A stretch of DNA of 64,000 nt from assembly GCA_963169695.1 (NCBI GenBank), contig CAUJDS010000060.1, forward strand, positions 64,780-128,779. The letters are read 5' to 3'. Origin of the DNA: Bdellovibrionota bacterium. GTDB taxonomy: Bacteria; Bdellovibrionota; UBA1018; CAUJDS01. Made by a program: the position numbers and the translations under genes. Below are positions 1-64,000 of the stretch, piece by piece (within the stretch, counting starts at the first letter, position 1; every line of letters starts with the position of its first letter). The notes below the pieces were generated by a model. That model worked only from the letters and a program-made list of their open reading frames with translations, was not told the DNA's origin and ran no database searches.

Positions 1-396
1 TGTCAAAACGCGAAGATCTTCCACCATTTTCTCATTGAATGGATCCGCCGTGGCGATTTTGAGTACTTCACTTCCTCCGATGGTCTCCTTGCTTAGTGGA
101 ATCAGCTCTTTGGACTTGGCGTAATTGATTGGTATATTATCTACAATCGCGGGATCAATTTGATCGGGCTTTAGGTCGTCGACATAGTCAAGTCCTACTT
201 GCCTGCAAAGCGCTTGCATAAGCTCAGCGGGAAGGATGATCTTTCGATCTACCAAGATATCTCCAAGAAGACCGCCTTCTTTGCGCTGAATTTCGAGCGC
301 TTCTTGAAGTTGTGCCTTCTGAAGAGAGGTGTGCTCAAGGAGCAACTGTCCTAAAAGGAGACCTTCGCGCGTTGTTGGTAATACCGCTTTGGACAT
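1..396 (-). CDS. gspE: Type II secretion ATPase GspE, N-terminal fragment; gene continues past the window start
   Basis: Minus-strand ATG at 396-394 shares one nucleotide with the gspD stop. Translation MSKAVLPTTREGLLLGQLLLEHTSLQKAQLQEALEIQRKEGGLLGDIL... resembles the GspE/PilB N-terminal (T2SSE_N) domain. It lies immediately downstream of gspC-gspD. Confidence 0.6.
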   Translation of the reverse strand, partial: MSKAVLPTTREGLLLGQLLLEHTSLQKAQLQEALEIQRKEGGLLGDILVDRKIILPAELMQALCRQVGLDYVDDLKPDQIDPAIVDNIPINYAKSKELIPLSKETIGGSEVLKIATADPFNEKMVEDLRVLT

Positions 397-2834: not shown

Positions 2835-2850
2835 AGGTTCCCCTTTTTCC

Positions 2851-3882
2851 TTATTGTGTAATGTCATACACCATCGTCGAAGCTTGATTGTCGCGTTTAA
2901 TTTTTAGTTCTACGGAATTCATCGTTTTAAAATCGTTCAGCATTTCAAAAGCTCTCTGCGGATTATTGATGGATTCGCCGTTGACCTCCCGAAGGATGTC
3001 GCCATTTCGCAGTCCGAGCCGATCATAAATACTTCCAGGTACAATCTGGATGAGCTTGTAACCCGACGGCGCTCCGTTTTCGAAGTGAGGGATCGCGCGG
3101 GCCTGGGTCAGTATTTGATTCAGGTTGGAAAGGTTTTTCTCGAGCTCTCCCCGCGGAATATTGAAGCGTTGGGAAGATCCCGTGGATTCGGTTGGAGCAA
3201 AGGCAGGCGCATTGCTTTGAGTGACAATCGACGGCTCAGGAGAATCGGGATCTTGCGGAAGGTCCGCGTACTCGCGGCGGCGGTTTTTGAGATTGATGAA
3301 AATCACCTTACGAGGCTCAACGCGTTCGACTCGAAGCAAGTTCGGCAATTCATCTCCCATTCGGACAGGATAGACTTTGTCGTCCGAGTCATTGTGAAGC
3401 GTGGCAATCGAGTACGCTTCGTCCTGTAGCAGAAGCGTTCCGATGAGTTTGATGGGCAATGTCGTTGGTAAGGCGGGCCCAGAAACTTCTCCGTCGTTGT
3501 CTTCTCCGGGGATCAATCCTTTGCTGTTGAAAAGGTTTCGAGTAAAAATTCCCTCAAAACTGTCCAGGGTTGGTCGGGTGCTGCCGCTAGCCTGCATGCC
3601 CATGGTTCCTCGCATTGTGCGAGGTTCGGGTATCCAGCTATTGATCCAGAGTCCCAAAAGATCCGAAAGAAAATAAGTGCAAAGAATGATGGTCAGAGCA
3701 GTTGTGTAGAACGAAAGGTTGCGTTGCTTGAGGAGCTTTTTTAGCCGATGGACGACTACTACGAACGTACTGCTGGCGCGCTCCGAAAATTTGCCGCCCC
3801 CCCGCTCACGAACTTTCTGCGAGACCTGATAGGCTAGGCTCGTGAGTTTGCTCTTCCATGCGTTAAAATCCGGACGTTTCAT
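2851..3882 (-). CDS. gspC: Type II secretion system protein GspC (TM segment plus C-terminal PDZ domain)
   Basis: N-terminal TM segment (LTIILCTYFLSDLLGLWI). C-terminal PDZ-like region GYKLIQIVPGSIYDRLGLRNGDILREVNGESI. Position directly upstream of the secretin gene. Confidence 0.7.
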   Translation of the reverse strand: MKRPDFNAWKSKLTSLAYQVSQKVRERGGGKFSERASSTFVVVVHRLKKLLKQRNLSFYTTALTIILCTYFLSDLLGLWINSWIPEPRTMRGTMGMQASGSTRPTLDSFEGIFTRNLFNSKGLIPGEDNDGEVSGPALPTTLPIKLIGTLLLQDEAYSIATLHNDSDDKVYPVRMGDELPNLLRVERVEPRKVIFINLKNRRREYADLPQDPDSPEPSIVTQSNAPAFAPTESTGSSQRFNIPRGELEKNLSNLNQILTQARAIPHFENGAPSGYKLIQIVPGSIYDRLGLRNGDILREVNGESINNPQRAFEMLNDFKTMNSVELKIKRDNQASTMVYDITQ

Positions 3883-12510: not shown

Positions 12511-12539
12511 TTGACAACCCCCTGGGTTGGGAATACTAA
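12511..12539 (+). promoter_or_regulatory. Candidate sigma70 promoter driving the thi riboswitch leader
   Basis: TTGACA (12511-12516), 17-nt spacer, TACTAA (12534-12539), immediately 5' of the riboswitch aptamer. Confidence 0.45.
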
Positions 12540-12545
12540 ATTCGA

Positions 12546-12645
12546 AACGGGGAGCTGCCCGTGATTTTTCAAAAGGCGGCTGAGAGGCTCGATAAAGGTC
12601 GAGCGACCCAAATAACTTGATCCAGGTAATGCTGGCGAAAGGAAA
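12546..12645 (+). promoter_or_regulatory. TPP (THI-element) riboswitch
   Basis: GGGGAGCUGCCC ... GGCUGAGA ... ACCC ... AACUUGAUCCAGGUAAUGCUGGCGAAAGGAA matches the conserved TPP aptamer core. The 3' arm abuts the thiM Shine-Dalgarno/ATG at 12651. Confidence 0.8.
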
Positions 12646-12650
12646 TCAAT

Positions 12651-13466
12651 ATGACTACGCCTAGAAGTGCAGCTTCGCTGCTCGAAGTCCTTCGAAGAGA
12701 AAAGCCGCTGATTCATCATCTCACCAATTATGTGACTATGGAGTTTTCGGCTAATGCGCTACTTGCCGTAGGCGCGTCTCCGCTTATGGCTCATGCGCCA
12801 GAAGAAATTTCAGAAATCATATCCATTGCTAGTGCTTTGGTGCTCAATATTGGGACCTTAGACAATGATTGGGTTGCAAGCATGAAGCTGGCAATTATCG
12901 AAGCAAAGCGTAAGGACCTCCCCGTTGTTTTAGATCCGGTAGGTGCCGGAGCTACGAGGTATCGAACTCGGGTGGCCCTGGAGCTTTTGAGCGAAGGTGG
13001 AATCTCGGTTCTCCGTGGCAACGCCTCAGAGGTCCTAGCTTTGGCTGGGCAGGGAGGGGGAGGTAAAGGTGTTGATTCACTCCATGCTTGGTCTGATGCA
13101 GCGGGAGCTGCGCGATTCCTATCGCAAGAGTTTTCTTGCACCGTATGTGTAAGTGGAGAAACTGATTTCATAACGGATGGCAGCCGTGAGGCAAAAGTTT
13201 ACAATGGCCACTCGATGATGACTCAAGTGACTGGTATGGGCTGTGTAGCTACTTCGCTTATTGGAGGCTTTCATGGAATCAGCAACGATGCTTTCCTAGC
13301 CACTGTCAATGCCATGGCCCTTGGTGGGGTTTGTGGTGAGTTGGCGGCTGAGTCAGCGACGGGGCCGGCAAGTTTCCGAATGGCGTGGCTAGATTGGCTA
13401 AGTCGTATTGAGGTTCAACAATTTGAGAATAAAGCTAGTTATGAGCAATTAAGGTTGCTTTCGTGA
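12651..13466 (+). CDS. thiM: Hydroxyethylthiazole kinase
   Basis: LIHHLTNYVTMEFSANALLAVGASPLMAH signature. 271 aa. Confidence 0.85.
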   Translation: MTTPRSAASLLEVLRREKPLIHHLTNYVTMEFSANALLAVGASPLMAHAPEEISEIISIASALVLNIGTLDNDWVASMKLAIIEAKRKDLPVVLDPVGAGATRYRTRVALELLSEGGISVLRGNASEVLALAGQGGGGKGVDSLHAWSDAAGAARFLSQEFSCTVCVSGETDFITDGSREAKVYNGHSMMTQVTGMGCVATSLIGGFHGISNDAFLATVNAMALGGVCGELAAESATGPASFRMAWLDWLSRIEVQQFENKASYEQLRLLS

Positions 13467-42921: not shown

Positions 42922-45654
42922 TCAGCGAGGTCTCGCCGTTAGGAAGTGAATGAGTTGCTGGTCTGCGCGGAGAAAGGTGTTTTCAATTTCGTTTCGGCGC
43001 GTCCATGACACTCCTGGTATTCCAGCGTGGGTGACAGTGTCCACAAAACTTGGCTGAAGTTGATAGAAGCGATAACTTGTCACCCGGGTATGCGTATCGT
43101 CTACGCGATCAAGGACAATCATACCGTTGCCACCTAGGATGGTGTCTTGTTGCACAGTGCCGAGCTGAGTGGGAGTGCTCGCAGTCACATGCCACGTTAT
43201 CCAAGTGTCATTGGAATTTTGCTGCGTATTCAACACCTCCCAATGGCGGGATTCGCTCAAGCCCCAATCACGATACAGTACCTGAGTGTCAAACTGCTGT
43301 GGCGTCCCTCCAAGGTAATTCGATTCTGCATAAGAGTTGCCCGATTCAGCCATAGCGTTGATTGAATCACCACTTCGAAGCTTTTCCAAGACGCCTTGCG
43401 TAGGAAGCGGGACGACCTGTGAAACTCGAGTCCCAAAAAAGGTGGAAGGATCGTAGGTGCTCAGCAAAGGTTGAGATTGAAGCGTTGTTGAGTCGATTCG
43501 AAACGACTCGGATACTATTGTAGAGACAGCACTGACATTAGCTTTTTCCACAAAAGATGCATGGTCCGCGATGGAAGAGGCCATCCAATTAGTGACCGGG
43601 GGAGTAGCTTGGTCTGGAATGTCTGCTTTGACTTGAGCAATGAGGGCTCGTGCCTCGGCGGTTGCCGATGCCAATTCTTCATCCGAAAAGAAAATCGCTG
43701 AACCGTTTTCGGGCTCCGAAGTCGCCTTTCGCAATTCTATGGCAAGGTGTCGTAGGAGCTTGCCCTCGTCTTCGACGTTGAGGCTTCCAATAGTATACTC
43801 TCGACTCGTAAAGAAAAGAGACGCTAGGACCGTTGCGAAGAGAGCGCCTTTTACGTATCGCGCGGTTCCTCGCAGCCCGCGACTGAGGAGAGATGCCGAA
43901 TTTCCATCAGGAGTCATTCCGAGGGTAATATTGAGGTTAGGTAGTGAAGTTCGATTGTGCCTAGATTCAGCAACGAGATCTTGTAGGGCAAGTACACGCC
44001 CATCACGCGCTGTTCTCTTCTCAATGCTCAGACCTTCCGTGCTGCCTATAAGAGCAAAGGGGATAGAGGTCGTTTGATTTTTCTCAGAACGATGAATGGA
44101 CTTCATCTCCTTTTTTGAAAAAACAATGATGTCATTCATCAGTCCTCGTATTTCTTGGAGGACTGCATCGAGATCCTTTTTGGACTGAATTGCCGAGGTG
44201 CTTAAGGGACCATCTGTGGATTGATTGGCTTGGAGATTTCCGACTTCATACTGTAGGCGATGTCTTTTTTCGATTAGGGTAGCAAAAAGTCGATCGAGGT
44301 GACTGTGGCCAATAGCCGGATTTCTTCCTGTGTTTCTTACATGTTTCTCAAAGAGCTTTTCAAAAATAAGGATGGCCTCTGCCTTCTTCTCGTTGAGTTG
44401 ATCTCTCAATTCGCCCAAATCCTTTGTTGAGCTCTCTTGCATCGCGAGTACAAGAATCTCTTGATGCTTTTTGGCTAGATCATTGAGAATGTTCTGAATG
44501 GATTGTGCACGGTCATTCTCTTCTTTATGGGTTTTTTCTTGATTTTCAAGTGCCGCTAAGTAGGTTTCGGCCTGGTGCTTTAGTTTTTCAATTTCGGATC
44601 TCTTTTGGGGATTTGTAATTCCTTGTAGGGCATTTTCGTATTCGGTAATGTCGGTACGGTATTTTTCCTCAGCAACTTGATTGGCCTCAAAAATTGCTAA
44701 ATTATTTCCAGGAGTTGTTACCGAAAACAGCATCATCTGAAGGCGATGAAGTTCTACTTCAAACATCAAGTCACGCGAAAGGACTTTGCTTCGAAGGTAG
44801 AAGGCTTCCAAAGGGCGAACCCCGGGAGAACCAAGGACCGGGCTGATCCACTTACGAGTAAGGTAGTAAGCAAATCCCGCTGGCGCAGCATAAAACAGTG
44901 AAGCAATTCCATAGGTGGTAGCGGCTTCTGAGCCAGCGACTTGTCCATAGATGAGTGGCGCTCCACCAGATAACGCCGCAAACATCATAGTAGGCCAGAA
45001 ATAAGATAGTGACGTCTTGTTGCCCGGGTGCTGTTTGCGAAATTCCGACAACTCATTCCGAGCAACGAGATCGATATTCATCGGTACGAGGAATTCAAAG
45101 ATCAAGGAATTCCAGTACTCAAATTGCCCAAAGGTCTCTAGACCAAAAGCCGAAGCACCTGTGTCGACAAATTTGGCAACTGCTTTGCCAACATAGGTTG
45201 CGATCGCGTATTGCGATCCGCGCGTGAACAACGGTTCTGTCAGCAGTCGATGGACCCGAAAATGGGGATCACTTTTGATGCGTCGGAGTGAATCAATAAT
45301 CGGTGTGGTGTAAGCCAGAAACGATCCAAGGATAGGTCGAATAAGGGTGTAATCGCCAGCCGCCTTGGCTGCCTTGCCGATTTGGTAGGACCAGTAGGCG
45401 CGTTGAAAGTGGCGCCCGCGCCAGGACCAAAGCTGCTTTTGGGCCAGAGCTTTGGCTGCATTGCTCTGAGGCGACTGCGCCTTGGGGGGCTCCGAAGGTT
45501 TATTGGGATCACTGAAAGCACCTGAGCATTCGTCTGATGGTCCATCCCCAGTCGGTGATGCGTAAGCCAGTACCGGCAGACTCAAAGTCTGAATGATAAA
45601 AAGCCCTAAAAATAGGAGGTAAGAAAGTGCCTTCAATGGATACTTGACTAACAA
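42922..45654 (-). CDS. Large hypothetical membrane-anchored protein with central coiled coil (910 aa)
   Basis: Signal/anchor plus several hydrophobic helices in the first ~300 aa. Long heptad-like charged region in the middle. Start is non-ATG (TTG) and uncertain. Confidence 0.5.
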   Translation of the reverse strand: MLVKYPLKALSYLLFLGLFIIQTLSLPVLAYASPTGDGPSDECSGAFSDPNKPSEPPKAQSPQSNAAKALAQKQLWSWRGRHFQRAYWSYQIGKAAKAAGDYTLIRPILGSFLAYTTPIIDSLRRIKSDPHFRVHRLLTEPLFTRGSQYAIATYVGKAVAKFVDTGASAFGLETFGQFEYWNSLIFEFLVPMNIDLVARNELSEFRKQHPGNKTSLSYFWPTMMFAALSGGAPLIYGQVAGSEAATTYGIASLFYAAPAGFAYYLTRKWISPVLGSPGVRPLEAFYLRSKVLSRDLMFEVELHRLQMMLFSVTTPGNNLAIFEANQVAEEKYRTDITEYENALQGITNPQKRSEIEKLKHQAETYLAALENQEKTHKEENDRAQSIQNILNDLAKKHQEILVLAMQESSTKDLGELRDQLNEKKAEAILIFEKLFEKHVRNTGRNPAIGHSHLDRLFATLIEKRHRLQYEVGNLQANQSTDGPLSTSAIQSKKDLDAVLQEIRGLMNDIIVFSKKEMKSIHRSEKNQTTSIPFALIGSTEGLSIEKRTARDGRVLALQDLVAESRHNRTSLPNLNITLGMTPDGNSASLLSRGLRGTARYVKGALFATVLASLFFTSREYTIGSLNVEDEGKLLRHLAIELRKATSEPENGSAIFFSDEELASATAEARALIAQVKADIPDQATPPVTNWMASSIADHASFVEKANVSAVSTIVSESFRIDSTTLQSQPLLSTYDPSTFFGTRVSQVVPLPTQGVLEKLRSGDSINAMAESGNSYAESNYLGGTPQQFDTQVLYRDWGLSESRHWEVLNTQQNSNDTWITWHVTASTPTQLGTVQQDTILGGNGMIVLDRVDDTHTRVTSYRFYQLQPSFVDTVTHAGIPGVSWTRRNEIENTFLRADQQLIHFLTARPR

Positions 45655-45828
45655 CTCTAGACATCTGAAGCAATTGAACTTTCTGTTAGATGTTGGTGAA
45701 CGCAGCCTTGTGATTAAATCAAATGAGTTGCGGTCACGTTTCGTGGCCCTATCCTATAAGCAGACTTCCTCACAGCTTTGTGCTTTTGTCATTGATCGAC
45801 ACGGTTGAATCCCGTAAACAAGCCGTCC

Positions 45829-46914
45829 ATGAATCATTTTAAATTTCTACTTTTGCTGGCGGTCTTTGGCCTGGGGTCCTCTGTTGCAAATGCTCAGTGG
45901 GAGCTTCCCGCCGAAACCGCTAGGTATTTGGGTGCCGCTGATGGCCGGCTCCCCATTGAAATCCGGGATATTCAAAGAATTATCGAACCCATTCGAATCG
46001 AGCCTAAGCTTCTAGCTTGGGGATACTCTGGCGCGGTTTTTGGACCCTATGCTGGGCAGGTATTCAAGATCTCCAATGAAGTCTTCGCGGCGCTTGATCA
46101 GCTTCCCCTTGAGAAGCCTTCTCACGACCAAACAAAGGTTGCGAGAGACTGGGCTCAGTTTGCACAGATACTGCAAAGGTTGAAGCGAGAGCAAGTTCAA
46201 CTATACCAAAGAATTGATGTTCAAAGTCCTCATGATGACGTTGTCGTAGCTCAGCTCCTTGCAAAATTTACGGGCCAGACTTTTCCAGCTGCGCCAAAAT
46301 GGATGACGCCAGATGGTTTGGCGAGCGCGGCTCCGTACTTGGTTGGCCAGACACTCGGTCAGACGCTTCAGCAATTCAATTACGGTGGCGTGAATCGAAA
46401 TGAACTTTTTGCGGAGCTGGCAAAATGGCTTCGACTCTCCAACAAGCTCGTCACTGAGTGGGGCGTTGCTCTTGATCTTCAATCTCCCGATAATTTCATT
46501 GTGGCAGGTAGTGCTCGTAAGCCAAGGCTGGAATTGGTCGACTTTTCGTTTGTAGAACCCGACGCGAGCGTGAAAGCATTTTACAAAAAGGCCAATGGTA
46601 AAGCTGTTCCAAAATTTCCTTTCAAAGGTGAGATCTACACCTTCCCAGCAACCACGGTACCTTACTTCCCGGTCATTGGAAGACTTTGGGATCTCCAGGC
46701 TGGCCAAAGGGACGATCTTATGAAATCACTCTACGGAAAGTTATCGCCAGATGAATTGGAAGCATACTATCGTGCAATCCCCATTCTTCAAAACACCAGA
46801 AACCCCGCTTTGAACGAAAATGCATGGTTGGTAGGTTTGTCGTGTTCAGCGGCTTTCCGTGGATCGGCTGCAAAAAAATCTCGAGAAGTTCAAGGTAGAC
46901 TCTGGAATCCCTGA
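45829..46914 (+). CDS. Hypothetical secreted protein
   Basis: ATG at 45829 gives the signal peptide MNHFKFLLLLAVFGLGSSVANA. The track ORF starts at TTG 45805. Confidence 0.5.
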   Translation: MNHFKFLLLLAVFGLGSSVANAQWELPAETARYLGAADGRLPIEIRDIQRIIEPIRIEPKLLAWGYSGAVFGPYAGQVFKISNEVFAALDQLPLEKPSHDQTKVARDWAQFAQILQRLKREQVQLYQRIDVQSPHDDVVVAQLLAKFTGQTFPAAPKWMTPDGLASAAPYLVGQTLGQTLQQFNYGGVNRNELFAELAKWLRLSNKLVTEWGVALDLQSPDNFIVAGSARKPRLELVDFSFVEPDASVKAFYKKANGKAVPKFPFKGEIYTFPATTVPYFPVIGRLWDLQAGQRDDLMKSLYGKLSPDELEAYYRAIPILQNTRNPALNENAWLVGLSCSAAFRGSAAKKSREVQGRLWNP

Positions 46915-51995: not shown

Positions 51996-53399
51996 ATGCG
52001 ATTGCCTAAGATTCACGGTGTTGTATCTGTCATCCTCATTCTTGCCCAACTCGTTTTGCCGCTTTCCGCGCAGGCAGGAGACCCCATTGATTGGAATAGC
52101 GCTCCAACCATTCGGGATAGAATGCAGGAATGCGCGCTCTTCCTTTCACTTACTCAGAAAGACCCTGACGGAAAATGGCGCCTCAATGACTCGATTGGAG
52201 TGAGGCTTTCATCCAGGTTAGAACGGCAGAGCATCAGAGAATCCTTGCAGGCTGCAATTGCTGAAAAAGGAATCGAAGAGGTACAAAAAGGGAAGATCTA
52301 CGCAACCGGGGTCGAAATGCGAGATCACAGGTCTAAGCGCAACGAAGTCTTTGAAATAGCTTCAGAACTTGGACTGAAGCTGCGTCGCAATCAAGTCGTC
52401 GTCATGTCCGTCCCTAGCAAAGTAGTAGAGTTGCTTTCTTTTCGGGCTTTGGTTAGCGTCTGGGAGAAACTAAGGTATTGGGCCCCGAGCCTTTCTCGTC
52501 ATTTTCAGAAGCCTCGTTGGGATGAAGCCTTTCATAAAATATTTTCTACAATACCGGTAGAGATTCCTACCCTAATTATGGTGTATCGTGACCTTGCACC
52601 CGCAGACGCTCATGTCGTTGCAGCCATTCACACAACCATTCTTTTTTCCTATTATCTATATACGAAGACTGTCAACAATTGGATGCAGCAACCGGGCATG
52701 AAGAACGCCGTGCCTATGCTGCTCAAGCAATTGGCGATGTCTACGCCTTTTGTTGTCAATTTCAATGTCATGTACAATATGGACAAGATACGGGCATTTG
52801 CTGGAGCAAACGGAATTCAGGCAACCTTAGCTGAGTTTCCTGAGCAGGTTGCTACGTTTGGCGCCACTCAGGGATTGACGGTAGCGCTTCAAACCATCTT
52901 TTATACTGTCCTTATGGGAAAGCGTATTGGACCTTGGATTGATTCCAAATCCGATCCTCGACAAAGTGTTTCCGTACGATCAGCGCAAGCATGGGTCACG
53001 GCGCCTTTTTTGGCCGCTGATTCTTTCTTTATTGCTATGGCTTCCTCAGGGAAGGATCCGCTCTGGTCCTTAGACCTCCCTTACGGGACCTTCAGTATTA
53101 ATCCAGGTCACCTCTTGCTTGCCGGTTTGACCGCAGGAAGTGCCGTGATCGCAAAGCCCTATATTCTTGATCCATTTTTGAGATTTTGGATGTGGGGAGA
53201 AGATCATGTTGGGCCAAAATGGCGAAGGGTGAAGGCTGGTGCCTTGGACTTTACAAAAAACTCAGTTCGATTTTTTTCTAACTTGGTTGGGATTGATGTT
53301 TCACGATTGTTTAAAGAAACCGTCGAATCCAACGCAAAGGACGATGCGAAAGAATCGGATGAAGAGGGTGGCCAGACGCCTCCTACCTCAGGAATCTAA
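51996..53399 (+). CDS. Hypothetical membrane protein
   Basis: Signal peptide MRLPKIHGVVSVILILAQLVLPLSAQA. Several TM segments in the C-terminal half. Confidence 0.5.
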   Translation: MRLPKIHGVVSVILILAQLVLPLSAQAGDPIDWNSAPTIRDRMQECALFLSLTQKDPDGKWRLNDSIGVRLSSRLERQSIRESLQAAIAEKGIEEVQKGKIYATGVEMRDHRSKRNEVFEIASELGLKLRRNQVVVMSVPSKVVELLSFRALVSVWEKLRYWAPSLSRHFQKPRWDEAFHKIFSTIPVEIPTLIMVYRDLAPADAHVVAAIHTTILFSYYLYTKTVNNWMQQPGMKNAVPMLLKQLAMSTPFVVNFNVMYNMDKIRAFAGANGIQATLAEFPEQVATFGATQGLTVALQTIFYTVLMGKRIGPWIDSKSDPRQSVSVRSAQAWVTAPFLAADSFFIAMASSGKDPLWSLDLPYGTFSINPGHLLLAGLTAGSAVIAKPYILDPFLRFWMWGEDHVGPKWRRVKAGALDFTKNSVRFFSNLVGIDVSRLFKETVESNAKDDAKESDEEGGQTPPTSGI

Positions 53400-54094
53400 A
53401 CCTGCCCGCACTTCAGGTTGGCGGGGACGGCTCTTTCGATTTGCTTTGGTGCATCGAGCTTAAGTTCGTTCATGATGATCTGAAACGCTTCTAAATCAAT
53501 TTCGTCCTTGAGCCTCGTATTGTGAACACGCTCTTCCCCGATGGAAGAACTCAAGGCGCCATCATAGTTATGGCCCGGAAAAACCAAGGTAGATGCAGGC
53601 ATTCTGAAGAGTTTGTTTTTGACGCTATGAAAGAGCTTCGCGGAGTCTCCCTGTTGAAAGTCGGTTCTGCCACAGGCTCGGACCAAGAGCGCATCACCAC
53701 TGAAGACCATTCCATAGCCGCTTGGATTGTAGAAGCTCAAGCAGGAGTCGGTGTGGCCAGGGGTCTCTACCACATGCAAGCTGTGATTGCCGAAGCGGAC
53801 TTCTTCGCCTTCTCGCAAGAAGCGATCAGCGCAATCCACCCCGCTATTGCGACTCAATCCTACCTTAGAATCAGAGAAGCGTTCTCGAAGTGCGCTCGCT
53901 CCCGTTATGTGATCGGCATGTACATGGGTATCTAGGATCCAAAGCAACTTCAAATTCAATTCACGGATGATGCGAGCATCTCGATCCACCATTTCTAGTA
54001 CGGGATCTATGATAACGGCTTCTTTGCAGCGTGAGTCAGCAAGGAGGTAAGTGCAGGTACCGGTTTCGATTTCGTAGAGTTGACGAAAGATCAT
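53396..54094 (-). CDS. ETHE1-like persulfide dioxygenase (MBL fold)
   Basis: [19 protein letters not shown]...AVIIDPVLE...LDTHVHADHITG closely resembles the ETHE1/glyoxalase-II-like family (HxHxDH). Confidence 0.8.
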   Translation of the reverse strand: MIFRQLYEIETGTCTYLLADSRCKEAVIIDPVLEMVDRDARIIRELNLKLLWILDTHVHADHITGASALRERFSDSKVGLSRNSGVDCADRFLREGEEVRFGNHSLHVVETPGHTDSCLSFYNPSGYGMVFSGDALLVRACGRTDFQQGDSAKLFHSVKNKLFRMPASTLVFPGHNYDGALSSSIGEERVHNTRLKDEIDLEAFQIIMNELKLDAPKQIERAVPANLKCGQV

Positions 54095-54552
54095 AATTTC
54101 TTCCAAACTTCTTTCAAGGCGCCCATCAGAGTTGGATGCTGAAGGATTTCGATGGCCAAATGATTTTGCGGGGTCTCAATTTTCTTTGGGAGGGTTCCGT
54201 CAGGATTTTCTTCAGCAAACGCATAGAGAAAAGTTCCAGGCTTCTTGGCGTAAACGATTATTTTTCGGGTGTAAATGCCATCACCTGCTTTTTTGTCTCC
54301 CATCACTCCATCGTCGGTAGCAATGCCCATGAGTTGGAGGACCTGGCCAGATTCATCAATTCGGACAACCGACAAACGAGCCTTCGGAAGGTTGGAAGGA
54401 TGAACTCTCGCTGAGACGATAAGGTTGGTGCTTTCTTTGACAAAGACGCTCTTCTGATCCGCATGGATTTCTTCAATCGGAACTGAAGCATGGGACGTGA
54501 GTGTCAAGCTAGTCGCTAGGGCCAAGCATGGAAGCAGGATCCATCCATTCAT
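54091..54552 (-). CDS. Hypothetical secreted protein (153 aa)
   Basis: Signal peptide [22 protein letters not shown]. 5' end overlaps the fumC 3' end by 44 nt. Stop overlaps the ETHE1-like start (ATGA). Confidence 0.45.
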
Positions 54553-55951: not shown

Positions 55952-56602
55952 TCAAGGGGTTTCGACGGGTAGAATTCCGGCACTTTCAAGCCTGGTTCTC
56001 AGATGCTCTCGAGCTCGAAGGAGTCGCGACCGATGAGCAGGAAGGCTTAGTCCTCTCTCCCTAGCTACTTGACCTAGCGTGTTGCTTGAGTTCAGGTGGA
56101 TGTCTAGTGTTGCACTATCTACTTCAGAGAGCGCTTTCAGTAGTTCTTGAAGGTTGCTCAGAGCTTCCTCTTCGCCAATAGTAGTTAGCGGTGTGGCATC
56201 GGGACCTGAGAACAATGCCAGGTCCAACTCCGTAGAGGACATTGGTCGGGACTTACGAAAGTGGCTAGACTTGAGACGGTCCTTTACCATATTTGCAACA
56301 ATAGAATAAACGTAGGTTGTGAACTTTGATTTGGATGAATCATAGTTATCGAATCCTTTGCGCAACAACCGGACCATGACATCTTGTATGATGTCTTCCT
56401 TTTCTTCTTGGGTCATCCTTGGATTGCCGGCGGTTAGCGTCGACACATATTTTGTAACGGTTTCGTAAATGTTACCGAGGTCAAAGACGCTGCTGCAATC
56501 GGGTTGAGACATTGTAAGTGTAGCAATAGACGCCTGTGAAGGACAAAGGTACAGTGGTACGCATAAAAAAGCAGCGACAAAGCTTCGAATGTTTAGAATC
56601 AT
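55952..56602 (-). CDS. ECF-type sigma-70 family protein with N-terminal hydrophobic extension
   Basis: Region 2 (DIIQDVMVRLLRKGFDNYD...YVYSIVANMVKDRL) and region 4 (SNTLGQVARERGLSLPAHRSRLLRAREHL). ATG lies 15 nt after the upstream stop. The first 25 aa look like a signal peptide. Confidence 0.7.
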   Translation of the reverse strand: MILNIRSFVAAFLCVPLYLCPSQASIATLTMSQPDCSSVFDLGNIYETVTKYVSTLTAGNPRMTQEEKEDIIQDVMVRLLRKGFDNYDSSKSKFTTYVYSIVANMVKDRLKSSHFRKSRPMSSTELDLALFSGPDATPLTTIGEEEALSNLQELLKALSEVDSATLDIHLNSSNTLGQVARERGLSLPAHRSRLLRAREHLRTRLESAGILPVETP

Positions 56603-56617
56603 TTTCTTGACTCGACT

Positions 56618-57367
56618 TTATCTAAGATTGAGAATTGCACCTAACTTCAATCGCCCCCGTCTTAGCACCATTTTGAAATTATTTATTTTCAAACCTAATA
56701 GCTGAGCAGATTCGATATAGGATTTGTCTTCAAAGTCTACCAGGCGAATAGCGTCCTGCTGAACCTGGGGGAGACTCTGGTAGGCACCCCATATCAAACT
56801 GAGCATGGAGAAGTAGACATCCTTTAAGATGAGCTCCTCTTCTTGCGAAATCAAAATGTTCAAGACCGGGCTAGTGTCTCTGCTCGGACTTCGCTCCAGA
56901 GGGTCGTGGTTGCCGTCAGGATCGTTCGGATTCCTTAGATCGCCTGAGGATTGGAAAAATTTGAGGATTTTTATCCGCTTATCTAGGATTTTCTTAGCAG
57001 CATTTTCAAAAATCCTTCCAACATAAGCCTCAAGGGTCGATCCAAAGTCTTCTCGATACTTGTGGCCCGAATATTTAAGTATATTCTCTAGGGTCAGGCT
57101 GACAATGTCCTCAACATCCTGGGGATTCAAGGTGCGTGAATACCTGCGCGCGATTTTTCTTCTGAGGATTTCAATTTCCGGAAGCGCATTCTGGATAAAG
57201 GCCTCCGCGGATGCTGTATCCTGAAAACTTGTGCGGCATGCTTCTGGATCTAATTTATCCGCTCCACCACTGGAGCCATTTCCATATGCCAAGGGAGAAA
57301 ATTCCAATGCCAAGAAAAGACTCAGGCTGAAACAATTTGTAAGAGCTTTTTGACAAGAAGTACTCAC
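56618..57367 (-). CDS. ECF-type sigma-70 family protein (paralogue) with N-terminal hydrophobic extension
   Basis: Region 2 (VEDIVSLTLENILKY...YVGRIFENAAKKIL) and region 4 (DAIRLVDFEDKSYIESAQLLGLKINNFKMVLRRGRLKL). GTG start 10 nt after the giant gene stop. No in-frame ATG before region 2. Confidence 0.7.
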   Translation of the reverse strand: MSTSCQKALTNCFSLSLFLALEFSPLAYGNGSSGGADKLDPEACRTSFQDTASAEAFIQNALPEIEILRRKIARRYSRTLNPQDVEDIVSLTLENILKYSGHKYREDFGSTLEAYVGRIFENAAKKILDKRIKILKFFQSSGDLRNPNDPDGNHDPLERSPSRDTSPVLNILISQEEELILKDVYFSMLSLIWGAYQSLPQVQQDAIRLVDFEDKSYIESAQLLGLKINNFKMVLRRGRLKLGAILNLR

Positions 57368-57377
57368 TATGGTTGCT

Positions 57378-60300
57378 TTACTTTCTCTTTTCTCGTTGTT
57401 CTTCTAACCAACGAGTAGGATTGATGCGAGTTCCGCGGTCGATCTTCCAGTCCACGGACTCTAGCACTTTGCCGTCTTTGTCGAGAAGTTCAAAATGATC
57501 CAGGAACCATCGTCGTGTCAAAATATAAGAAAAATCCAAGTTCTTTGTGCCATTTGCAGGAGATTCGATTGGCAGAATCCTGCGGACCACTTTGATTTTT
57601 GCAACATCCTGATAAATTGGATTTCCTGGATCTTCCTGAATACCTACAATCACCGAATGCAGAAAGGCACCTAGGCTAGTATGAGGGTCAAAATCCAAGG
57701 CTGTCGGCTCCGATGGCTGGGGCAGGGGAGGCGTCCATAGGCCAAAGTAGCTTCCCGCTTTTTTGGCCAGTGCAGTCCAAGTGCCATCAAGCGCGTTTCT
57801 TTCTTCCGCTAGATTATGGAGCAATTCATCCTCCGATAGAGGCTTGCCTTCTTTTTTTCTTTTCTCTGCTTCGACCTTCTTGGGATCTAGCCAAAGCGAG
57901 GGAATGGCTTTCAGGGGGTCCGGCAAATCGGACTCTACCGTCGGCGTCATCACAAAACCGTCTTCGATCACTAAGTCAGTGCCGTCCTTCTTTTTGGCTG
58001 GGAGCCGAATGGCAAATATTTTGGGTTCGATCTGTTGAAATCCATCAGGACCTAGAATGAAGAGCACATTCTGGTGCCTTCCAATCACAACGACGCTCTT
58101 AAGCAAAGGTTCGTTGGGATTCATGGGATTGCGCAGGTACTGTTTGTAAACCCAACCCGTGTTTTCGAGCAGCCAATCAAAGCCCCAGCCGCTCTCGGTC
58201 ATCTCTCCAAGGACCTTCTGCCATAGGGGTTCTAGGTTGAAAGGATCGTGATCATCTTCCTGATCTTCAGGAGGTAAGTCGGCCGTCTCGGTTCTTTGCG
58301 TAAAGACGATGCCTGAAGGAATCGTCTCGCCGCCAAGATTCACTCCGCGGTCGAGGATGCCTTTCTCACGATCGCGCTCCTTGCTTAGTGCTACGAGCTT
58401 CTTTTCAAGTGGAGTGAGGGATTCTTCCAACATGGGCTTGAGGTACGCACGAGGGTCGTCGGAGCGCATTATTTTGCTCTCAAATGCTCGGTGGCTTGCT
58501 TCGTGCGGAGCAAGGCTAGGTTGGGTGTCGGAAACAAACCAGCTCTTGATCCAATGAGTCCATGTCTTGTCCTCGGGTTGGGAGGCTCCCTTTTGCTGCG
58601 CGAGTCGCACAAGGCCTCTGCGTATATCGTCAGTTTCAAGTCGAAGATTTTTGTACTGTTGGTCAAAGATCTTACCTTCACCTTGAGTGAGCTCTTCCTG
58701 GCTCATGCCCAGAGCTTCGACTAGGTCTTCGAGGGTCATTTTATTTTCTGGATCGACGAGTTGTATTTCGTCAAATTTCAGACCATCCAAGAAGTCACCT
58801 GCATAACGTGCTTCGTCCGGAAAGCCACTAGCCATCATGGTGATTTCGCGTACGCCGTTTTTCTCAGCTATAGCTAATTGCTCCATGATCTTGTCGACCT
58901 GGGGTTGTCCGATGAATTGCGCTCGCGGGAATCCGGCGGCCGCATCTTGCACGCCTTTGTTGATCAGGCCGTCTTTTTCGGTCAGTTCATTAAATAGCGC
59001 AGCTGAAGTGAATCGATCCACGCCCGCAACAAGAAGCTGTCCTGCGGCTCCGGGTATTCCGCCGAGTTTGCCAAGGCTAAGTTGGAGAGGCGCAGTCGCC
59101 ATGGCAAAAGGAAGTTCGAAAACATTGCCATAGAGTATAGAAGTCTTGGCATAGTTGCTGGCACTCATCGCACCATTGACCGAAAAGTCTCTCTGACCAC
59201 TGACCATGATTTGATGTGCGGTCGCGAGCGATCCTGACCAAAGCAAGGTGAAGGCCGATTGCGTAGCCATCGCCCCTTTCATTGAGCGAGATTGAAGGGC
59301 AAAGGGCATAAGAAATACAAGCATTCCCGAATTGCTCATTCGGTGAAGGAGGATTTCATTGAAGTCTTTATTGTCTAGGTTGAAATCGACCTTACCGTCA
59401 CGGGTGAGCAGATCTCCGGCCATTCCTGCGGTCCACTCAGCAAGCAATCCCCAACGGGCATACTGCCAGTATTGTGGTCCACGAGAGCCCAGAGCTGCAC
59501 GATAGGTTGCTGATCCCACTCCATTGACTAATTTGGAGGCGCCTTTGACAAAAGTCTTCACCGTAGCGATGGGCATTCGTAGGACTTTGACTGTGCGAAG
59601 CCCACGTAGCGGATCCATACCTGATCGGAGTTGGTAGCGGACAAGCCACTGTGCCAAAGATTCGCCTTGATTGAAGGTGGGGATTTTTTCTGCTGCGTTT
59701 CGGCCTGCCTTGATAAGGGTCATAGAAGCGGGACCATTATTCTCACGTTGAATGGAGCGTAAAAGTTCGAGACGGTTCCCGTCGGCGTGGATGCTGGCCA
59801 TCCGCATCACCTCAGGATGTCGACCGAGGACGGCATTCTGCCTTGCGAGTTGGAGGAGTTGTGTCTCGGAGTGCAGGCTACGAATAACGCCTTCTGCGAG
59901 CTTTCTGCTTCTGCCGATTTTCAGTAGGTCCATGTAGCTCGCATCTCGCAGGTTGCGGTAGTTGCGAATCAATCGTATCAGCGCCCGTCCGCGAACTGAA
60001 AACGCCTGAAAAAACTGGCGGAAGGGATTTTGGGTAAGCTTGATATCTGCTGCATACTGGAAGAAAATACGAAATCGGTTTCCAACCTCCAGCCAATAGT
60101 CGACTTCACTCTGTGTCGCCCCTGGGATTGAAAAACGCGCCAACTCAGCATTTTCCAGAAAAGCAGTGTGACCTAGCCTGCTGGTTTCGATGTGATTGAA
60201 GGCTCGTTGGTTAATGGCATTAGGTGTCGCCAATTTCCGAGCCCCCTCGTCGATGCTGCGACTCACATAGCTTGCGTAGGTATCGGCCTGTGTGCGGCCT

Positions 60301-63300
60301 AAGCTTTGCTCATAGCGCCGAGTCAGCTCTTGATGCAGATAGGGATGTTCGTGGCGCAGACGGTTCAAGAATTGGTATTCGGCTTCCTTTTTTGCAGCAA
60401 GCGAGGTTGTCCGCGGTGCAACCTGCTTTAGGTAGCCCTGATTTAAGTCCGTCAAGGCCTGATAGCGTTTTTGAAGCTGAGCTTCCACGCCAGGATTTCG
60501 AGCGAAGAGCTTTTCTAAGCTGCGAGCACTCGCAAGGTCTACACGGTACTTCTTGAGTGCGGTAATCAAGCCCGGATCCAAGGAGCCGCTGAGGTCTAGG
60601 TCTGCCAAGGTCTGGCCAGAAGCATTTCCGCTCTTAGAGAAAAGCTCCATAAACTCTTCAAAATCCTTCGTGGTCATTCCCTTCCAGGTATTGCCAGTGG
60701 CACGAGTGGTTTCGGCGACGTCGAGCATTTCTTCCACGCCATTTTGTCGCATAAAGTGGAGAAAGTCCTCAAACTCGGGATGGGCTTGAACCGCTGCTCG
60801 AATTTGTTGTACCCGGGATTGGGAGAGTTGAAGGGTGCTGTATGAAACAGCGGTTTCTACATTGACGGTTCGAACCGGCCATCGAAATGGCCAAAGCGGA
60901 CGATCCCACCGTAGTGGAAACTGCAAAGCATACCTTTTTCGTTTTACGGTTTCGGTGACGTTGAAGCCATCCGTCCCATAGAAGTCATTTAGTGTGAATC
61001 GGGGTTCGACGGTGGTCGGTGTTGTGGTTATTTTGACCGATGAGACAGGAGCGTTGGGATCTCCGGGGAGTCCTGCCGGCGTTTCGATTGGCATAATCTC
61101 AGCAACGAGGTTACCTGGCTCTAGTCCCTTAAAGTATTTGGATCCCGTTACTTCAAAGACCACATAGTCCGAAAAGCTTGGCTTAGGAGCCATTGCTTGA
61201 ATGCCATTGCGAAGGGAGTTGCGAAAGGGAATGAGGCGCTGAAGCCATCCATCGGTTTGAATCCAGTTGCCAATTCCGCCTCGAAATCCAAGTCGGTTCT
61301 GAATAAATCCATCACGCCAAAACCATGATGTATCTGCGCGGTAACGTCTCCAAAGTTCTCGGTAGGTCTTTGGAAAATATTTCTTAAGATCGGTCACTAA
61401 TTTGGAACGATATCCCGCAAGTTCTTGGGCGGGGATGATTTGCTTTCCGCCAATCCGCGCTTTGGCTCCTCGGATGCTGACTACATGATCTTCGATGAGT
61501 TGTTGGAGTTGATCAAAATTCTTCTGTGCTATCTCTGGTCGAAATGCTGGACTTCCCACTCTTCGAAGTTTAGCCAGGTCGTCGATTCCTTCTTCATACA
61601 TTCCGTACTCTTTTAAGTATCTGAGCTGTCGGTTGTGGCTAGCGGGATCTAAGGCGAGACGAAGCCGATTGTCTTGTACCTCGCGGACGGCTAGGCGCTT
61701 GTCCATGTTTTTTAGAAGGTGATTAAATGGAATGTTTTCTTTGATGGTTCCAACTACGGGCACCGCGCTCTTACCTGCAGCAACACGAAGGTAAAAGAGA
61801 GAAGCCGCTTGGACGCTGATCAAGCCCAGAGAGAGGTACCAGTTATTTAGAGCTTCCTGGCTCATGAGTAGGTTCTGATCAACAGTAGCAGGGTCTACAT
61901 GGGCCAAGGGCTCTCCATTGCGGTCGATGGTGTACTGAAGGGCTTCAAAGAGATGAGGAAGTTCTCCTATGGCGTTGAAGTAAAGTTGGCTAGATGCACC
62001 TGTGGTGAGAGCAAGGTCAGTAACGAGCATAGCCATGGCGAGCCATTCTGACGGAAAAAGAAGCAGAGTGAGCCCAGTGCCAACTCCAGACCCTATTAAG
62101 GACCAATGCAAGAGGCGATTGGATCGCTCAGTCTCAGCCATCATGGAATTATAGAAGGGGAGGAGATTGTCAAAACTTGCTTTGACTTGCTCGGGCTTGA
62201 AACCAAAGCTTGAGGCGAGCATCTTTTGAAGGTTCTCTGAGGATTGAAAGACTGGAATAAGAATAGAGAAATAGCGCAAATAATCTTCGGCATTGCCAGA
62301 TTCATGAATTTCTTCGTCGGAAATGGTTTGTTTCTCAAGGCTCGAATCGAAGAGAGCGTTCTCGGGGAGCATGTGAAGGACACGAGAAGTCATACCAAAG
62401 AATCCCTTGGGCGTCTGTCTGCGGGTCATAGCCAGAAGGGATGTGTTGAGATGAAGCATCCGCTTTTCCCATGCCTGGTAGTGAAGCTCGTCCGCCACGG
62501 AAAGGAGATTTCGGAGGCCTGAACTGAGGTCGTCGTCTTCTACTGCATGAAAAATGCTTGATTTGAGGTCTTCGAGAGGAACTTCTGAAATTTCGTTGCG
62601 TAGAACGATTTCGAGATTTTTAGGAAGCGTGCCCTGATTCCAACGAAGGATCTTTCCAAATTCTGGATTGCGGCTATTGATTTGTAGGTACTGATAAAAG
62701 GCGAGGGCAGCGTAAGCCTCATAGAGAAAAGGAAGCTTGAGTTCTTTGCGGACGGGATTGCGGTATTCACCCAAGATCTGGGTCAGGTGAGCAAAAAGCC
62801 TGGTGTTGATTTTATTTGGCAGGATGTCCGAAGGAATCGGTGCCGCAAGAATGCGGTTACTGTCCTTTAGAAATTCTTGCTGCTGCTTGGATCGAATTTC
62901 AGCGACGACCGCGGCTGGAATATTTTTCCCCTGAGCCAGAACTCGGTCATACTCCCAGACCATGAGAGAATCGATCATGGAATAGATCAGTGCGGTTTGC
63001 CCAAGGGGAGAGGTACCGTGAAAAAGGTTTTTCTGGTCCCGCGTGGTAGTTTTGTCGTCTTGAATCGTCAGAAAGCGCTGAAAATCTGGAAAGAGCTCCT
63101 TTGGATAAGCTCGCTGGTAAGCCTCGAGCAAATGTTCGGTCTTGCCTTGGTTGTAGGCAATGGCCTTATCGCCAAAGAAGTTTTCGCCATACTCAACATG
63201 CTGCCTTCGCGTGATCAGAAGCAATGCTGTGGTGAGCTTGGCCGCGGCCATCAGCGGCAGCAATCCGTTTTTGCCGATTTCGAGCGATTGAGTCTTATCT

Positions 63301-63542
63301 TTGACCTGTGCAAGAACTTCCGTACCCGCCACCGCGGAAGAAGGAGCGGCAAGCGTGGACTCTAAGGTCAATCGTCCACCATCGTTGGAAGCTTCTGGGG
63401 CGCTGTCTTCTTCCGTAGTTTCGTCAGAAGCCTGTGCGTTGGAGGTGGGATAAAAAGGGGCAATAGAACTGAGTGTGAAAACCCAAAGTAGAAGAAGCGA
63501 TAAGGTCCACTGTCGATTGGAAGAGAGATTATGCTGATTCAC
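57378..63542 (-). CDS. Giant hypothetical secreted/membrane-associated protein (2054 aa)
   Basis: Uninterrupted 6165-nt ORF. N-terminal Sec signal (WTLSLLLLWVFTLSSIAPFYPTSNAQA). Internal hydrophobic segments. ATG overlaps the upstream ORF by 4 nt. Confidence 0.6.
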   Translation of the reverse strand: MNQHNLSSNRQWTLSLLLLWVFTLSSIAPFYPTSNAQASDETTEEDSAPEASNDGGRLTLESTLAAPSSAVAGTEVLAQVKDKTQSLEIGKNGLLPLMAAAKLTTALLLITRRQHVEYGENFFGDKAIAYNQGKTEHLLEAYQRAYPKELFPDFQRFLTIQDDKTTTRDQKNLFHGTSPLGQTALIYSMIDSLMVWEYDRVLAQGKNIPAAVVAEIRSKQQQEFLKDSNRILAAPIPSDILPNKINTRLFAHLTQILGEYRNPVRKELKLPFLYEAYAALAFYQYLQINSRNPEFGKILRWNQGTLPKNLEIVLRNEISEVPLEDLKSSIFHAVEDDDLSSGLRNLLSVADELHYQAWEKRMLHLNTSLLAMTRRQTPKGFFGMTSRVLHMLPENALFDSSLEKQTISDEEIHESGNAEDYLRYFSILIPVFQSSENLQKMLASSFGFKPEQVKASFDNLLPFYNSMMAETERSNRLLHWSLIGSGVGTGLTLLLFPSEWLAMAMLVTDLALTTGASSQLYFNAIGELPHLFEALQYTIDRNGEPLAHVDPATVDQNLLMSQEALNNWYLSLGLISVQAASLFYLRVAAGKSAVPVVGTIKENIPFNHLLKNMDKRLAVREVQDNRLRLALDPASHNRQLRYLKEYGMYEEGIDDLAKLRRVGSPAFRPEIAQKNFDQLQQLIEDHVVSIRGAKARIGGKQIIPAQELAGYRSKLVTDLKKYFPKTYRELWRRYRADTSWFWRDGFIQNRLGFRGGIGNWIQTDGWLQRLIPFRNSLRNGIQAMAPKPSFSDYVVFEVTGSKYFKGLEPGNLVAEIMPIETPAGLPGDPNAPVSSVKITTTPTTVEPRFTLNDFYGTDGFNVTETVKRKRYALQFPLRWDRPLWPFRWPVRTVNVETAVSYSTLQLSQSRVQQIRAAVQAHPEFEDFLHFMRQNGVEEMLDVAETTRATGNTWKGMTTKDFEEFMELFSKSGNASGQTLADLDLSGSLDPGLITALKKYRVDLASARSLEKLFARNPGVEAQLQKRYQALTDLNQGYLKQVAPRTTSLAAKKEAEYQFLNRLRHEHPYLHQELTRRYEQSLGRTQADTYASYVSRSIDEGARKLATPNAINQRAFNHIETSRLGHTAFLENAELARFSIPGATQSEVDYWLEVGNRFRIFFQYAADIKLTQNPFRQFFQAFSVRGRALIRLIRNYRNLRDASYMDLLKIGRSRKLAEGVIRSLHSETQLLQLARQNAVLGRHPEVMRMASIHADGNRLELLRSIQRENNGPASMTLIKAGRNAAEKIPTFNQGESLAQWLVRYQLRSGMDPLRGLRTVKVLRMPIATVKTFVKGASKLVNGVGSATYRAALGSRGPQYWQYARWGLLAEWTAGMAGDLLTRDGKVDFNLDNKDFNEILLHRMSNSGMLVFLMPFALQSRSMKGAMATQSAFTLLWSGSLATAHQIMVSGQRDFSVNGAMSASNYAKTSILYGNVFELPFAMATAPLQLSLGKLGGIPGAAGQLLVAGVDRFTSAALFNELTEKDGLINKGVQDAAAGFPRAQFIGQPQVDKIMEQLAIAEKNGVREITMMASGFPDEARYAGDFLDGLKFDEIQLVDPENKMTLEDLVEALGMSQEELTQGEGKIFDQQYKNLRLETDDIRRGLVRLAQQKGASQPEDKTWTHWIKSWFVSDTQPSLAPHEASHRAFESKIMRSDDPRAYLKPMLEESLTPLEKKLVALSKERDREKGILDRGVNLGGETIPSGIVFTQRTETADLPPEDQEDDHDPFNLEPLWQKVLGEMTESGWGFDWLLENTGWVYKQYLRNPMNPNEPLLKSVVVIGRHQNVLFILGPDGFQQIEPKIFAIRLPAKKKDGTDLVIEDGFVMTPTVESDLPDPLKAIPSLWLDPKKVEAEKRKKEGKPLSEDELLHNLAEERNALDGTWTALAKKAGSYFGLWTPPLPQPSEPTALDFDPHTSLGAFLHSVIVGIQEDPGNPIYQDVAKIKVVRRILPIESPANGTKNLDFSYILTRRWFLDHFELLDKDGKVLESVDWKIDRGTRINPTRWLEEQREKRK

Positions 63543-64000
63543 TTCTTTCGTCCTTCGGTAGTTGCATCTTGATTAAGCAGGTCCCTTTTTAGTTGAAGTT
63601 CAAAGGGAGTCAACTGGGAGAGTGAAATTTCTTCGGGCACCGAGAGCTTGATCGTCAAGGCTCTGTCCTTGGTCGACGCTAGGATCTCAGCGTAGGCAGC
63701 CTGGTCCAATTCTGGGAGTGCGCTGGAGAGTTGTTGAGTCCATTCCTTGAGCATTGCCGAGAAGGTCAAAACGTCGTCAAGGGAGGGCTGCGGATTGCTA
63801 CCAAGTTCTTGGAGATTCTTCTTCAATGAAGCAAGGCCGGATCTCAGAGACTCTTGAGTGACGCCCGAGAAGTTATCTTCGGCTACGCGAGGCAAGAGGG
63901 CAATTTCTAACTGTTGAAGTTCTGCTTCGAAAGCTTCCCGCGGAAAAATCCGAATACCTAGGCTCACGAGGCCCGCTTCAGTGTCCTGAAGGTGTTGCTC
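63539..64000 (-). CDS. Hypothetical protein, partial (open reading frame continues past the window end)
   Basis: The frame is open from the window edge. The track start is a GTG at 63967. Stop overlaps the giant gene start. Acidic, helical. Confidence 0.35.
   Translation of the reverse strand, partial: EQHLQDTEAGLVSLGIRIFPREAFEAELQQLEIALLPRVAEDNFSGVTQESLRSGLASLKKNLQELGSNPQPSLDDVLTFSAMLKEWTQQLSSALPELDQAAYAEILASTKDRALTIKLSVPEEISLSQLTPFELQLKRDLLNQDATTEGRKK

Follow-up and report, generated by a model that had tools for sequence, protein, structure and literature searches.

Extracytoplasmic function (ECF) sigma genes that lie co-directionally beside genes for exported or membrane proteins are known from the RpoE-RseA and FecI-FecR-FecA modules, where the sigma gene stands upstream of an anti-sigma gene. 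Among the chlamydial Inc proteins, the type III translocators and the colicin pore domains, none of which is known to be a Sec substrate, there are helical proteins that enter target membranes by hydrophobic hairpins. In Bacillus subtilis, the pro-sequence of pro-sigma-K is removed by the membrane-embedded protease SpoIVFB (PMC6242693), and the main text of the ECF re-classification describes N-terminal extensions of BldN, SigC and sigma-R, none of them with a signal peptide (PMC7826278). In the abstract of a preprint on very large envelope proteins of predatory or episymbiotic bacteria, the word 'giant' is set against titin of ~40,000 amino acids (aa) and larger proteins (bioRxiv 10.1101/2023.11.21.568195). 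Here we describe a locus in a stretch of 64,000 nucleotides (nt) from the Bdellovibrionota assembly GCA_963169695.1 (contig CAUJDS010000060.1; the whole stretch is called the window), in which a gene for a 2054-aa protein, termed the giant, is preceded by a partner gene and followed by two sigma-like genes on the same strand.

Judged by its homologues, the giant is an orphan that defines an undescribed, tiny protein family seen only in a few uncultured bacteria. Our preferred reading, which we hold as plausible though short of probable, is that it is exported by Sec, becomes embedded in a membrane and there belongs to an envelope complex specific to its lineage, in which the partner and probably a protein of a second family, big1302, take part too. 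The sigma genes appear to be a local addition outside the core of this family.

The giant gene and its family

The initial annotation had described one continuous minus-strand open reading frame (ORF) of 6.2 kb heading an operon. The ORF was recovered without interruption (Table 1; 2054 codons and a TAA stop at 57378-57380), base composition is flat across the region, and 2054 stop-free codons at 49% GC lie far above chance expectation. Because of this stop-free run and of a full-length homologue at 31% identity, we judge the ORF to be a real gene. Its place at the head of an operon was not upheld, as the giant is gene two, behind a translationally coupled 715-aa partner gene. The reported overlap with the preceding ORF does exist, whereas its wording as an ATG start within ATGA needs correction: the start is GTG and overlaps the TGA stop of the upstream gene as GTGA, and ATGA is the form seen at the homologue P0002.

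In an index of 5.8 billion proteins, the giant matched only the identical public protein P0001 and the full-length homologue P0002 (2156 aa, 31% identical over 99% of the length). An exhaustive HMMER search with a profile of residues 41-1100 against 1.84 billion representatives gave nine proteins, namely these two, two further full-length members (P0017, 1618 aa, E 1.5e-40; P0018, 1818 aa, E 8e-28) and five fragments. The profile matches covered residues ~48-600, which comprise the N-terminal domain and the hydrophobic hairpin, while the second hydrophobic domain was linked by member-versus-member BLAST (P0002 1416-1596 against P0017 1065-1243, E 6.6e-7). Pattern scans for giant motifs in GTDB representative genomes and Joint Genome Institute (JGI) metagenomes found no relatives. 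As to the source genome itself, its isoleucyl-tRNA synthetase (IleRS) is 55% identical to that of a metagenome-assembled genome labelled 'Deltaproteobacteria bacterium'.

The family could not be connected to any described one, in agreement with the initial annotation. The giant had no match in Pfam (searched whole and as eight segments, E up to 5) or NCBIfam, and the PDB, queried with the sequence and with profiles built from 2, 4 and 8 family members, returned chance-level matches alone (E at least 0.5). AlphaFold2 was run on two halves of the protein with a 2-sequence alignment, and the mean-confidence values, on the predicted local distance difference test (pLDDT) scale, were 31.8 and 32.1, with only about 100 C-terminal residues at 70-80. 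These low-confidence models (pLDDT 32) are mostly helical with a beta-containing C-terminus, and Foldseek of the C-terminal model against the PDB found nothing at E <=0.001. Self-BLAST gave the identity match alone, so the reported lack of obvious internal repeats also stands. Tandem-repeat, RTX, adhesin, autotransporter and beta-barrel signatures were absent by self-BLAST, Pfam and NCBIfam, and homology to a characterised adhesin, RTX or toxin family was likewise looked for in the libraries without result.

These searches bear on whether the giant could be a tape-measure-like structural protein of a phage or mobile element, or a component of a defence system. It is long, helical, Cys-poor and has internal hydrophobic segments, in line with such an origin. 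However, neither the giant nor the partner matched PHROGs or PADLOC, the relatives P0017 and P0018 had no match in PHROGs, the giant carries a Sec signal peptide, and the composition of the region is even. The context is chromosomal, with housekeeping genes in conserved synteny and envelope-gene neighbours. A phage or defence origin is thus close to excluded.

Layout and predicted topology of the giant

By sequence reading, the N-terminus of the giant has the organization of a Sec (type I) signal peptide, as first proposed, with a basic n-region, an uncharged h-region (W12-F30) and an A-X-A-type c-region. Its Kyte-Doolittle value is 1.67, it also passes the signal-peptide heuristic used in this analysis, and the N-termini of P0002, P0017 and P0018 are hydrophobic as well. 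Following the signal peptide, the N-terminal domain contains the best-conserved stretch, residues 96-165 (PL.AAAKLTT.LL..RR.HVEYGENFFG.KAIAYN.GKT), which is 52-68% identical to P0002 in 50-residue windows. At the opposite end, a terminal D-W...P..W motif is invariant in four members. The middle region 591-1350 is mostly absent from the distant relatives.

Hydrophobic segments of the giant lie at 93-111, 477-507 and 570-588, and a weaker glycine-rich cluster is found at about 1355-1510 (Kyte-Doolittle 1.0-1.2). Of the internal helices first placed around 480-600 and near 1300-1400, the former were therefore recovered, and the latter were replaced by this weak cluster. Segments 477-520, 564-590, 1397-1415 and 1424-1447 (numbering of the window protein) align in the four full-length members, and the relatives reach Kyte-Doolittle values of up to 2.0-2.4. 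Meanwhile, the net charge changes along the chain, being -11 over residues 40-476, -6 over 521-566, about +34 over 589-1350 and -20 over 1520-1800. The acidic N-terminal domain and loop, together with the basic stretch 591-1350, fit a positive-inside pattern with inner-membrane topology.

The export signal, the coupled gene pair, the conserved hydrophobic segments and the conserved neighbours are shown by the sequences, and the topology, the complex and any role of the giant are what we infer. After Sec export and cleavage of the signal peptide, the acidic 440-residue N-terminal domain would remain periplasmic. Three parts would anchor the protein in the membrane, namely the hairpin at 477-520, the helix at 564-590 and the second of the hydrophobic domains at 1351-1515, and the middle region 591-1350 would be cytoplasmic. 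The lineage-specific envelope complex would then be formed with the partner and probably also with the big1302 protein.

Several points weigh against this reading. On an additive Hessa-type scale, the internal segments of the giant are marginal and none is at or below 3 kcal/mol (best dG 0.9 kcal/mol in P0002 and 2.3 in P0017); therefore stable membrane integration is not assured. The giant contains no Cys among 2054 residues, as compared with 1.15% in the cytoplasm-like and 0.55% in the signal-peptide-like ORFs of the window. At 1.15%, ~9 Cys would be expected in the supposedly cytoplasmic 760-residue stretch, and their absence is a better match to export of the whole protein. Furthermore, it is gene order only that points to contact between the giant and the partner or big1302, neither structure nor homology points to a function, and the AlphaFold models (pLDDT 32) are too poor to use.

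Some of these points suit another explanation, namely that the giant, the partner and neighbouring signal-peptide proteins that have marginal hydrophobic hairpins are Sec-exported, released and inserted into a foreign (prey or host) membrane or the outer membrane, as membrane-targeting effectors or translocators. The lack of Cys is striking even beside the other signal-peptide proteins of the window, and the hydrophobic segments of the giant are perhaps too weak to stop Sec transfer. The giant also evolves very fast relative to FumC, which is 79% identical between the window genome and the P0002 genome, as compared with 31% for the giant, 24% for the partner and 24-34% for the giant, the partner and other exported neighbours taken together. 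In addition, several neighbours resemble the giant in build, with a signal peptide, short hydrophobic segments and few cysteines, and a GspD-type secretin is encoded in the same window (396..2867). On the other hand, the hairpins of the relatives (Kyte-Doolittle 2.0-2.4; dG near 1 kcal/mol in P0002) would be prone to stall in the inner membrane, the positive-inside distribution of charge matches an integral topology, the cluster holds no secretion-system gene, and a predatory or parasitic lifestyle of the host is not established. We consider such a secreted role, the main rival to our reading, rather unlikely, and retain a membrane-embedded envelope component as the preferred reading.

Table 1. 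Coordinates of the giant gene, of the regions of its product and of the neighbouring features. Positions refer to the window unless a public contig (L number) is given.
Feature	Position	Strand	Description
Giant gene	57378..63542	-	2054 aa plus stop; GTG start, AAGGA 8 nt upstream of start
Giant, residues 1-38	63429..63542	-	Putative Sec-type signal peptide: R10, h-region 12-30, A36-Q37-A38 then S39 (sequence reading, heuristic)
Giant, residues 39-476	62115..63428	-	Acidic (net -11), helical N-terminal domain; conserved core of the family
Giant, residues 477-590	61773..62114	-	Conserved hydrophobic hairpin (477-520), acidic 45-residue loop, third hydrophobic helix (564-590)
Giant, residues 591-1350	59493..61772	-	Basic (net about +34), helical, poorly conserved middle; variable insert about 785-905
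Giant, residues 1351-1515	58998..59492	-	Second hydrophobic domain; glycine-rich, weakly hydrophobic, family-conserved
Giant, residues 1516-2054	57381..58997	-	C-terminal region, mixed alpha/beta; acidic (-20) over 1520-1800, near neutral (-1) over 1800-2054
Partner gene, 3' end	63539..64000	-	Last ~150 codons; cut by window end; TGA overlaps giant GTG
Gap	57368..57377	-	10 nt between giant stop and longest ORF of sigma-like 1 (GTG at 57367)
Sigma-like 1	56618..57367	-	249 aa from GTG (231 aa in public call); degenerate ECF-type
Sigma-like 2	55952..56602	-	216 aa; ECF sigma with regions 2 and 4; N-terminus MILNIRSFVAAFLCVPLYLCPSQA/S
Third sigma-like gene of giant-adjacent set	L003 9966..10658	+	
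Gap between P0002 gene and sigma gene	L002 16472..16539	+	68 nt, AT-rich; TTGACA, 17 nt, TAAAAG, just before ATG
big1302 member	L002 2177..6085	-	1302 aa
big1302 member	L005 9382..12669	+	1095 aa
big1302 member	L006 17224..19674	+	816 aa; hhalign probability 92%, E 6.5e-7
big1302 member	L001 1..501	-	Truncated gene; 167 encoded residues just beyond window position 64000, divergent from partner
BrnT/BrnA toxin-antitoxin pair	L002 7034..7562	+	Between big1302 and partner
Signal-peptide-like ORF	42922..45654	-	
Signal-peptide-like ORF	45805..46914	+	
Signal-peptide-like ORF	51996..53399	+	
Signal-peptide-like ORF	54091..54552	-	
GspD-type secretin gene	396..2867	-	Secretin, Secretin_N and N0 domains
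ORF overlapping secretin gene	2851..3882	-	Sub-threshold PDZ match
TPP riboswitch	12538..12660	+	Rfam RF00059, 57 bits (gathering score 54.3); directly upstream of ORF cluster from 12651

Neighbouring genes and the sigma link

Although the window ends within the partner gene, the overlapping public contig L001 gives it in full. Its 715-aa product also starts with a signal peptide, contains a single Cys and has one strongly hydrophobic stretch inside, at 462-483. In the P0002 genome, a homologue of 765 aa is encoded by the gene that runs into the P0002 start (24% identity, E 1e-34). A 737-bp TARA Oceans contig (L009) carries a fragment 48% identical to the N-terminus of the giant, with a partner-like C-terminus directly before it. 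Partner and giant thus appear, in this order, as a translationally coupled pair in three genomes. No partner homologue was found at the loci of the distant members P0017 and P0018. Relatedness between the partner and the giant was considered and rejected (hhalign probability 0.2%). Upstream of the partner, a sigma-70-like TTGAAA-N17-TA(A/T)ATA is present in both the window genome and the P0002 genome, a weak observation of consensus resemblance only, and no ECF-type promoter stands out there in either genome.

The big1302 family comprises large signal-peptide proteins (816-1302 aa) with internal hydrophobic segments and no Pfam match. Each of the four loci with flanks (L001, L002, L005 and L006) has a member near the giant, and big1302 is a more widely conserved neighbour of the giant than the sigma genes are. 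Together with the partner and big1302, the giant marks a set of large exported proteins, poor in cysteine and specific to this lineage, in deltaproteobacteria-like bacteria of which little is known. Separately, the BrnT/BrnA pair of L002 has no counterpart in the equivalent spacer of the window genome.

Downstream of the giant, both genes match sigma-70/ECF models, as the initial annotation had suggested. Sigma-like 2 scored above the cut-offs of PF04542 (37.1 bits, cut-off 24) and TIGR02937 (56.4 bits over residues 48-205, cut-off 42.9). Its alignment to the RpoE and SigW structures spans 66-205, and its ED..Q and ..SR..RA..LR motifs are canonical. About 200 aa long, it has sigma-2 and sigma-4 regions and neither region 3 nor region 1.1, which is the build of an ECF (group 4) sigma factor. 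Its orthologue in the P0002 genome is the only sigma gene that follows the giant there (27% identity, E 9e-8). Sigma-like 1 exceeded the cut-off for PF08281 (28.2 bits, cut-off 25.7) and fell below those for PF04542 (16.4 against 24 bits) and TIGR02937 (33.9 against 42.9 bits), and both of its domains match SigH/SigE structures weakly. By these matches, both are taken to be real though divergent sigma genes, sigma-like 2 of ECF type and sigma-like 1 probably so. Beyond the three giant-adjacent sigma proteins, a profile search yielded nothing close, the next matches being generic ECF sigmas at E 1e-8 to 1e-11. Recent duplication of sigma-like 1 and 2 was rejected.

The three genes of the window are co-directional and separated by gaps of 10 and 15 nt. 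The former value, given originally as the distance from the giant stop to the first sigma gene, applies to the longest ORF of sigma-like 1, whereas in the public annotation the gene begins at a TTG that lies 64 nt past the stop. No terminator-like site occurs on the gene strand in either gap. It should be pointed out that the locus has no more and no fewer promoter- and terminator-like sites than expected from shuffled sequence, which leaves this absence with little weight. The sigma genes are probably co-transcribed with the giant here.

Such an arrangement invites the idea that the giant is a sensor in the envelope and that control runs from it to the adjacent ECF sigmas, or the other way round, as in an unconventional anti-sigma or cell-surface-signalling module. 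The short gaps free of terminator-like sites favour it, in both related genomes the giant has a sigma gene behind it, and there is no conventional anti-sigma gene nearby, so some other control would be needed. However, no anti-sigma domain (zf-HC2, RskA, RseA_N, FecR or similar) was detected by Pfam and NCBIfam in the giant, even on its eight segments at E up to 5, or in the partner, the 153-aa and the 467-aa proteins. Moreover, the sigma link is limited to two genomes, the window genome and the related P0002 genome; at the loci of the distant full-length members P0017 and P0018, no sigma gene is near. The two genomes also share fumC and genes for a 153-aa exported protein, a metallo-beta-lactamase-fold protein, a 467/517-aa exported protein and a cation-efflux protein. 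Because the flanking housekeeping genes are shared in both genomes, the sigma adjacency may be inherited gene order rather than functional coupling. In addition, the TTGACA-containing gap before the sigma gene in the P0002 genome (Table 1) could be a separate promoter for that gene. We regard the sensor as improbable. The claim that expression of the giant is tied to its own regulators did not hold as a family trait. Its basis in tight spacing did. A sigma gene again comes after the giant in the P0002 genome, the one related genome with known downstream sequence, and co-occurrence across relatives stops short of the P0017 and P0018 loci.

The sigma proteins themselves have an unusual beginning. 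All three sigma-like proteins start with a hydrophobic, signal-peptide-like extension directly before sigma region 2. It consists of one basic residue, 13-16 uncharged hydrophobic residues and a small-residue c-region (SQA, AYG, SLA), and is followed by a net-negative stretch with a single Cys. Random or spurious ORF starts have this build in 2-3.6% of cases each, and three of three by chance would be unlikely, with the caveat that two of the three proteins are orthologues. Two further caveats concern the starts: an aligned internal Met in sigma-like 2 (M31) and its orthologue (M29) is a possible true start, and the signal-like segment of sigma-like 1 requires the GTG start. Lipoprotein signals were rejected, since the sequences lack an L-[AS]-[GA]-C lipobox.

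Because these hydrophobic extensions are present and no anti-sigma gene is nearby, the sigma proteins are more likely to be membrane-controlled in a pro-sigma manner than to be simple regulators owned by the giant. No protease gene was found within the cluster. A bolder possibility is that the whole cluster is an export module, from which the sigma proteins would be delivered to a second cell to retarget the RNA polymerase there, with the giant and the partner as membrane-inserting carriers. Such a sigma factor would be an inter-bacterial effector, and we hold this to be very improbable. If the N-termini are real, they would represent a new membrane-holding mode for an ECF sigma or, less likely, an exported sigma factor; neither a membrane-held nor an exported ECF sigma is described in the main text of the current ECF classification (PMC7826278).

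Other features of the window are listed in Table 1. The four signal-peptide-like ORFs match no Pfam family and contain 0.11-0.65% Cys. Two of their products, the 467-aa and 153-aa exported proteins, are conserved next to P0002 at 32-34% identity, and the latter scores 27.8 bits against the NCBIfam 'choice-of-anchor X' domain (cut-off 25). At the far end of the window, the secretin gene and the ORF overlapping it form part of a type II-like secretion or pilus apparatus. A thiamine pyrophosphate (TPP) riboswitch was also identified.

Comparison with known systems

Compared with the chlamydial Inc proteins, type III translocators and colicin pore domains, the giant shares the helical build, the two-helix hydrophobic hairpin, few cysteines and fast evolution. 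It differs in having a Sec signal, and no sequence similarity to them was found in any library or in the PDB. Like the very large envelope proteins of predatory or episymbiotic bacteria in the preprint (bioRxiv 10.1101/2023.11.21.568195), the giant is large, has an N-terminal export signal and comes from an uncultured lineage; unlike them, it has only 2054 aa and no recognisable domain or repeat.

For the sigma extensions, the pro-sequence of pro-sigma-K is, by analogy, the nearest functional precedent, as both are short hydrophobic N-terminal extensions of a sigma factor. The pro-sigma-K type belongs to the group-3 sporulation sigmas of Firmicutes, whereas the proteins here are of ECF type, and this cluster contains no site-2-protease gene. 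The extensions here also have the n-h-c layout and the charge bias of an export signal, a basic residue standing in front and a net negative stretch behind.

The RpoE-RseA and FecI-FecR-FecA modules resemble the present locus in having ECF-type sigma genes co-directional with neighbouring genes for exported or membrane proteins. In contrast to them, no neighbour here has a Pfam or NCBIfam anti-sigma domain, the sigma genes are downstream of the envelope genes instead of upstream of an anti-sigma gene, and the sigma proteins have signal-peptide-like N-termini. Exported envelope proteins beside ECF sigma genes are hence a familiar kind of arrangement, in which the absent anti-sigma domain and the export-like sigma N-termini are the unfamiliar particulars.

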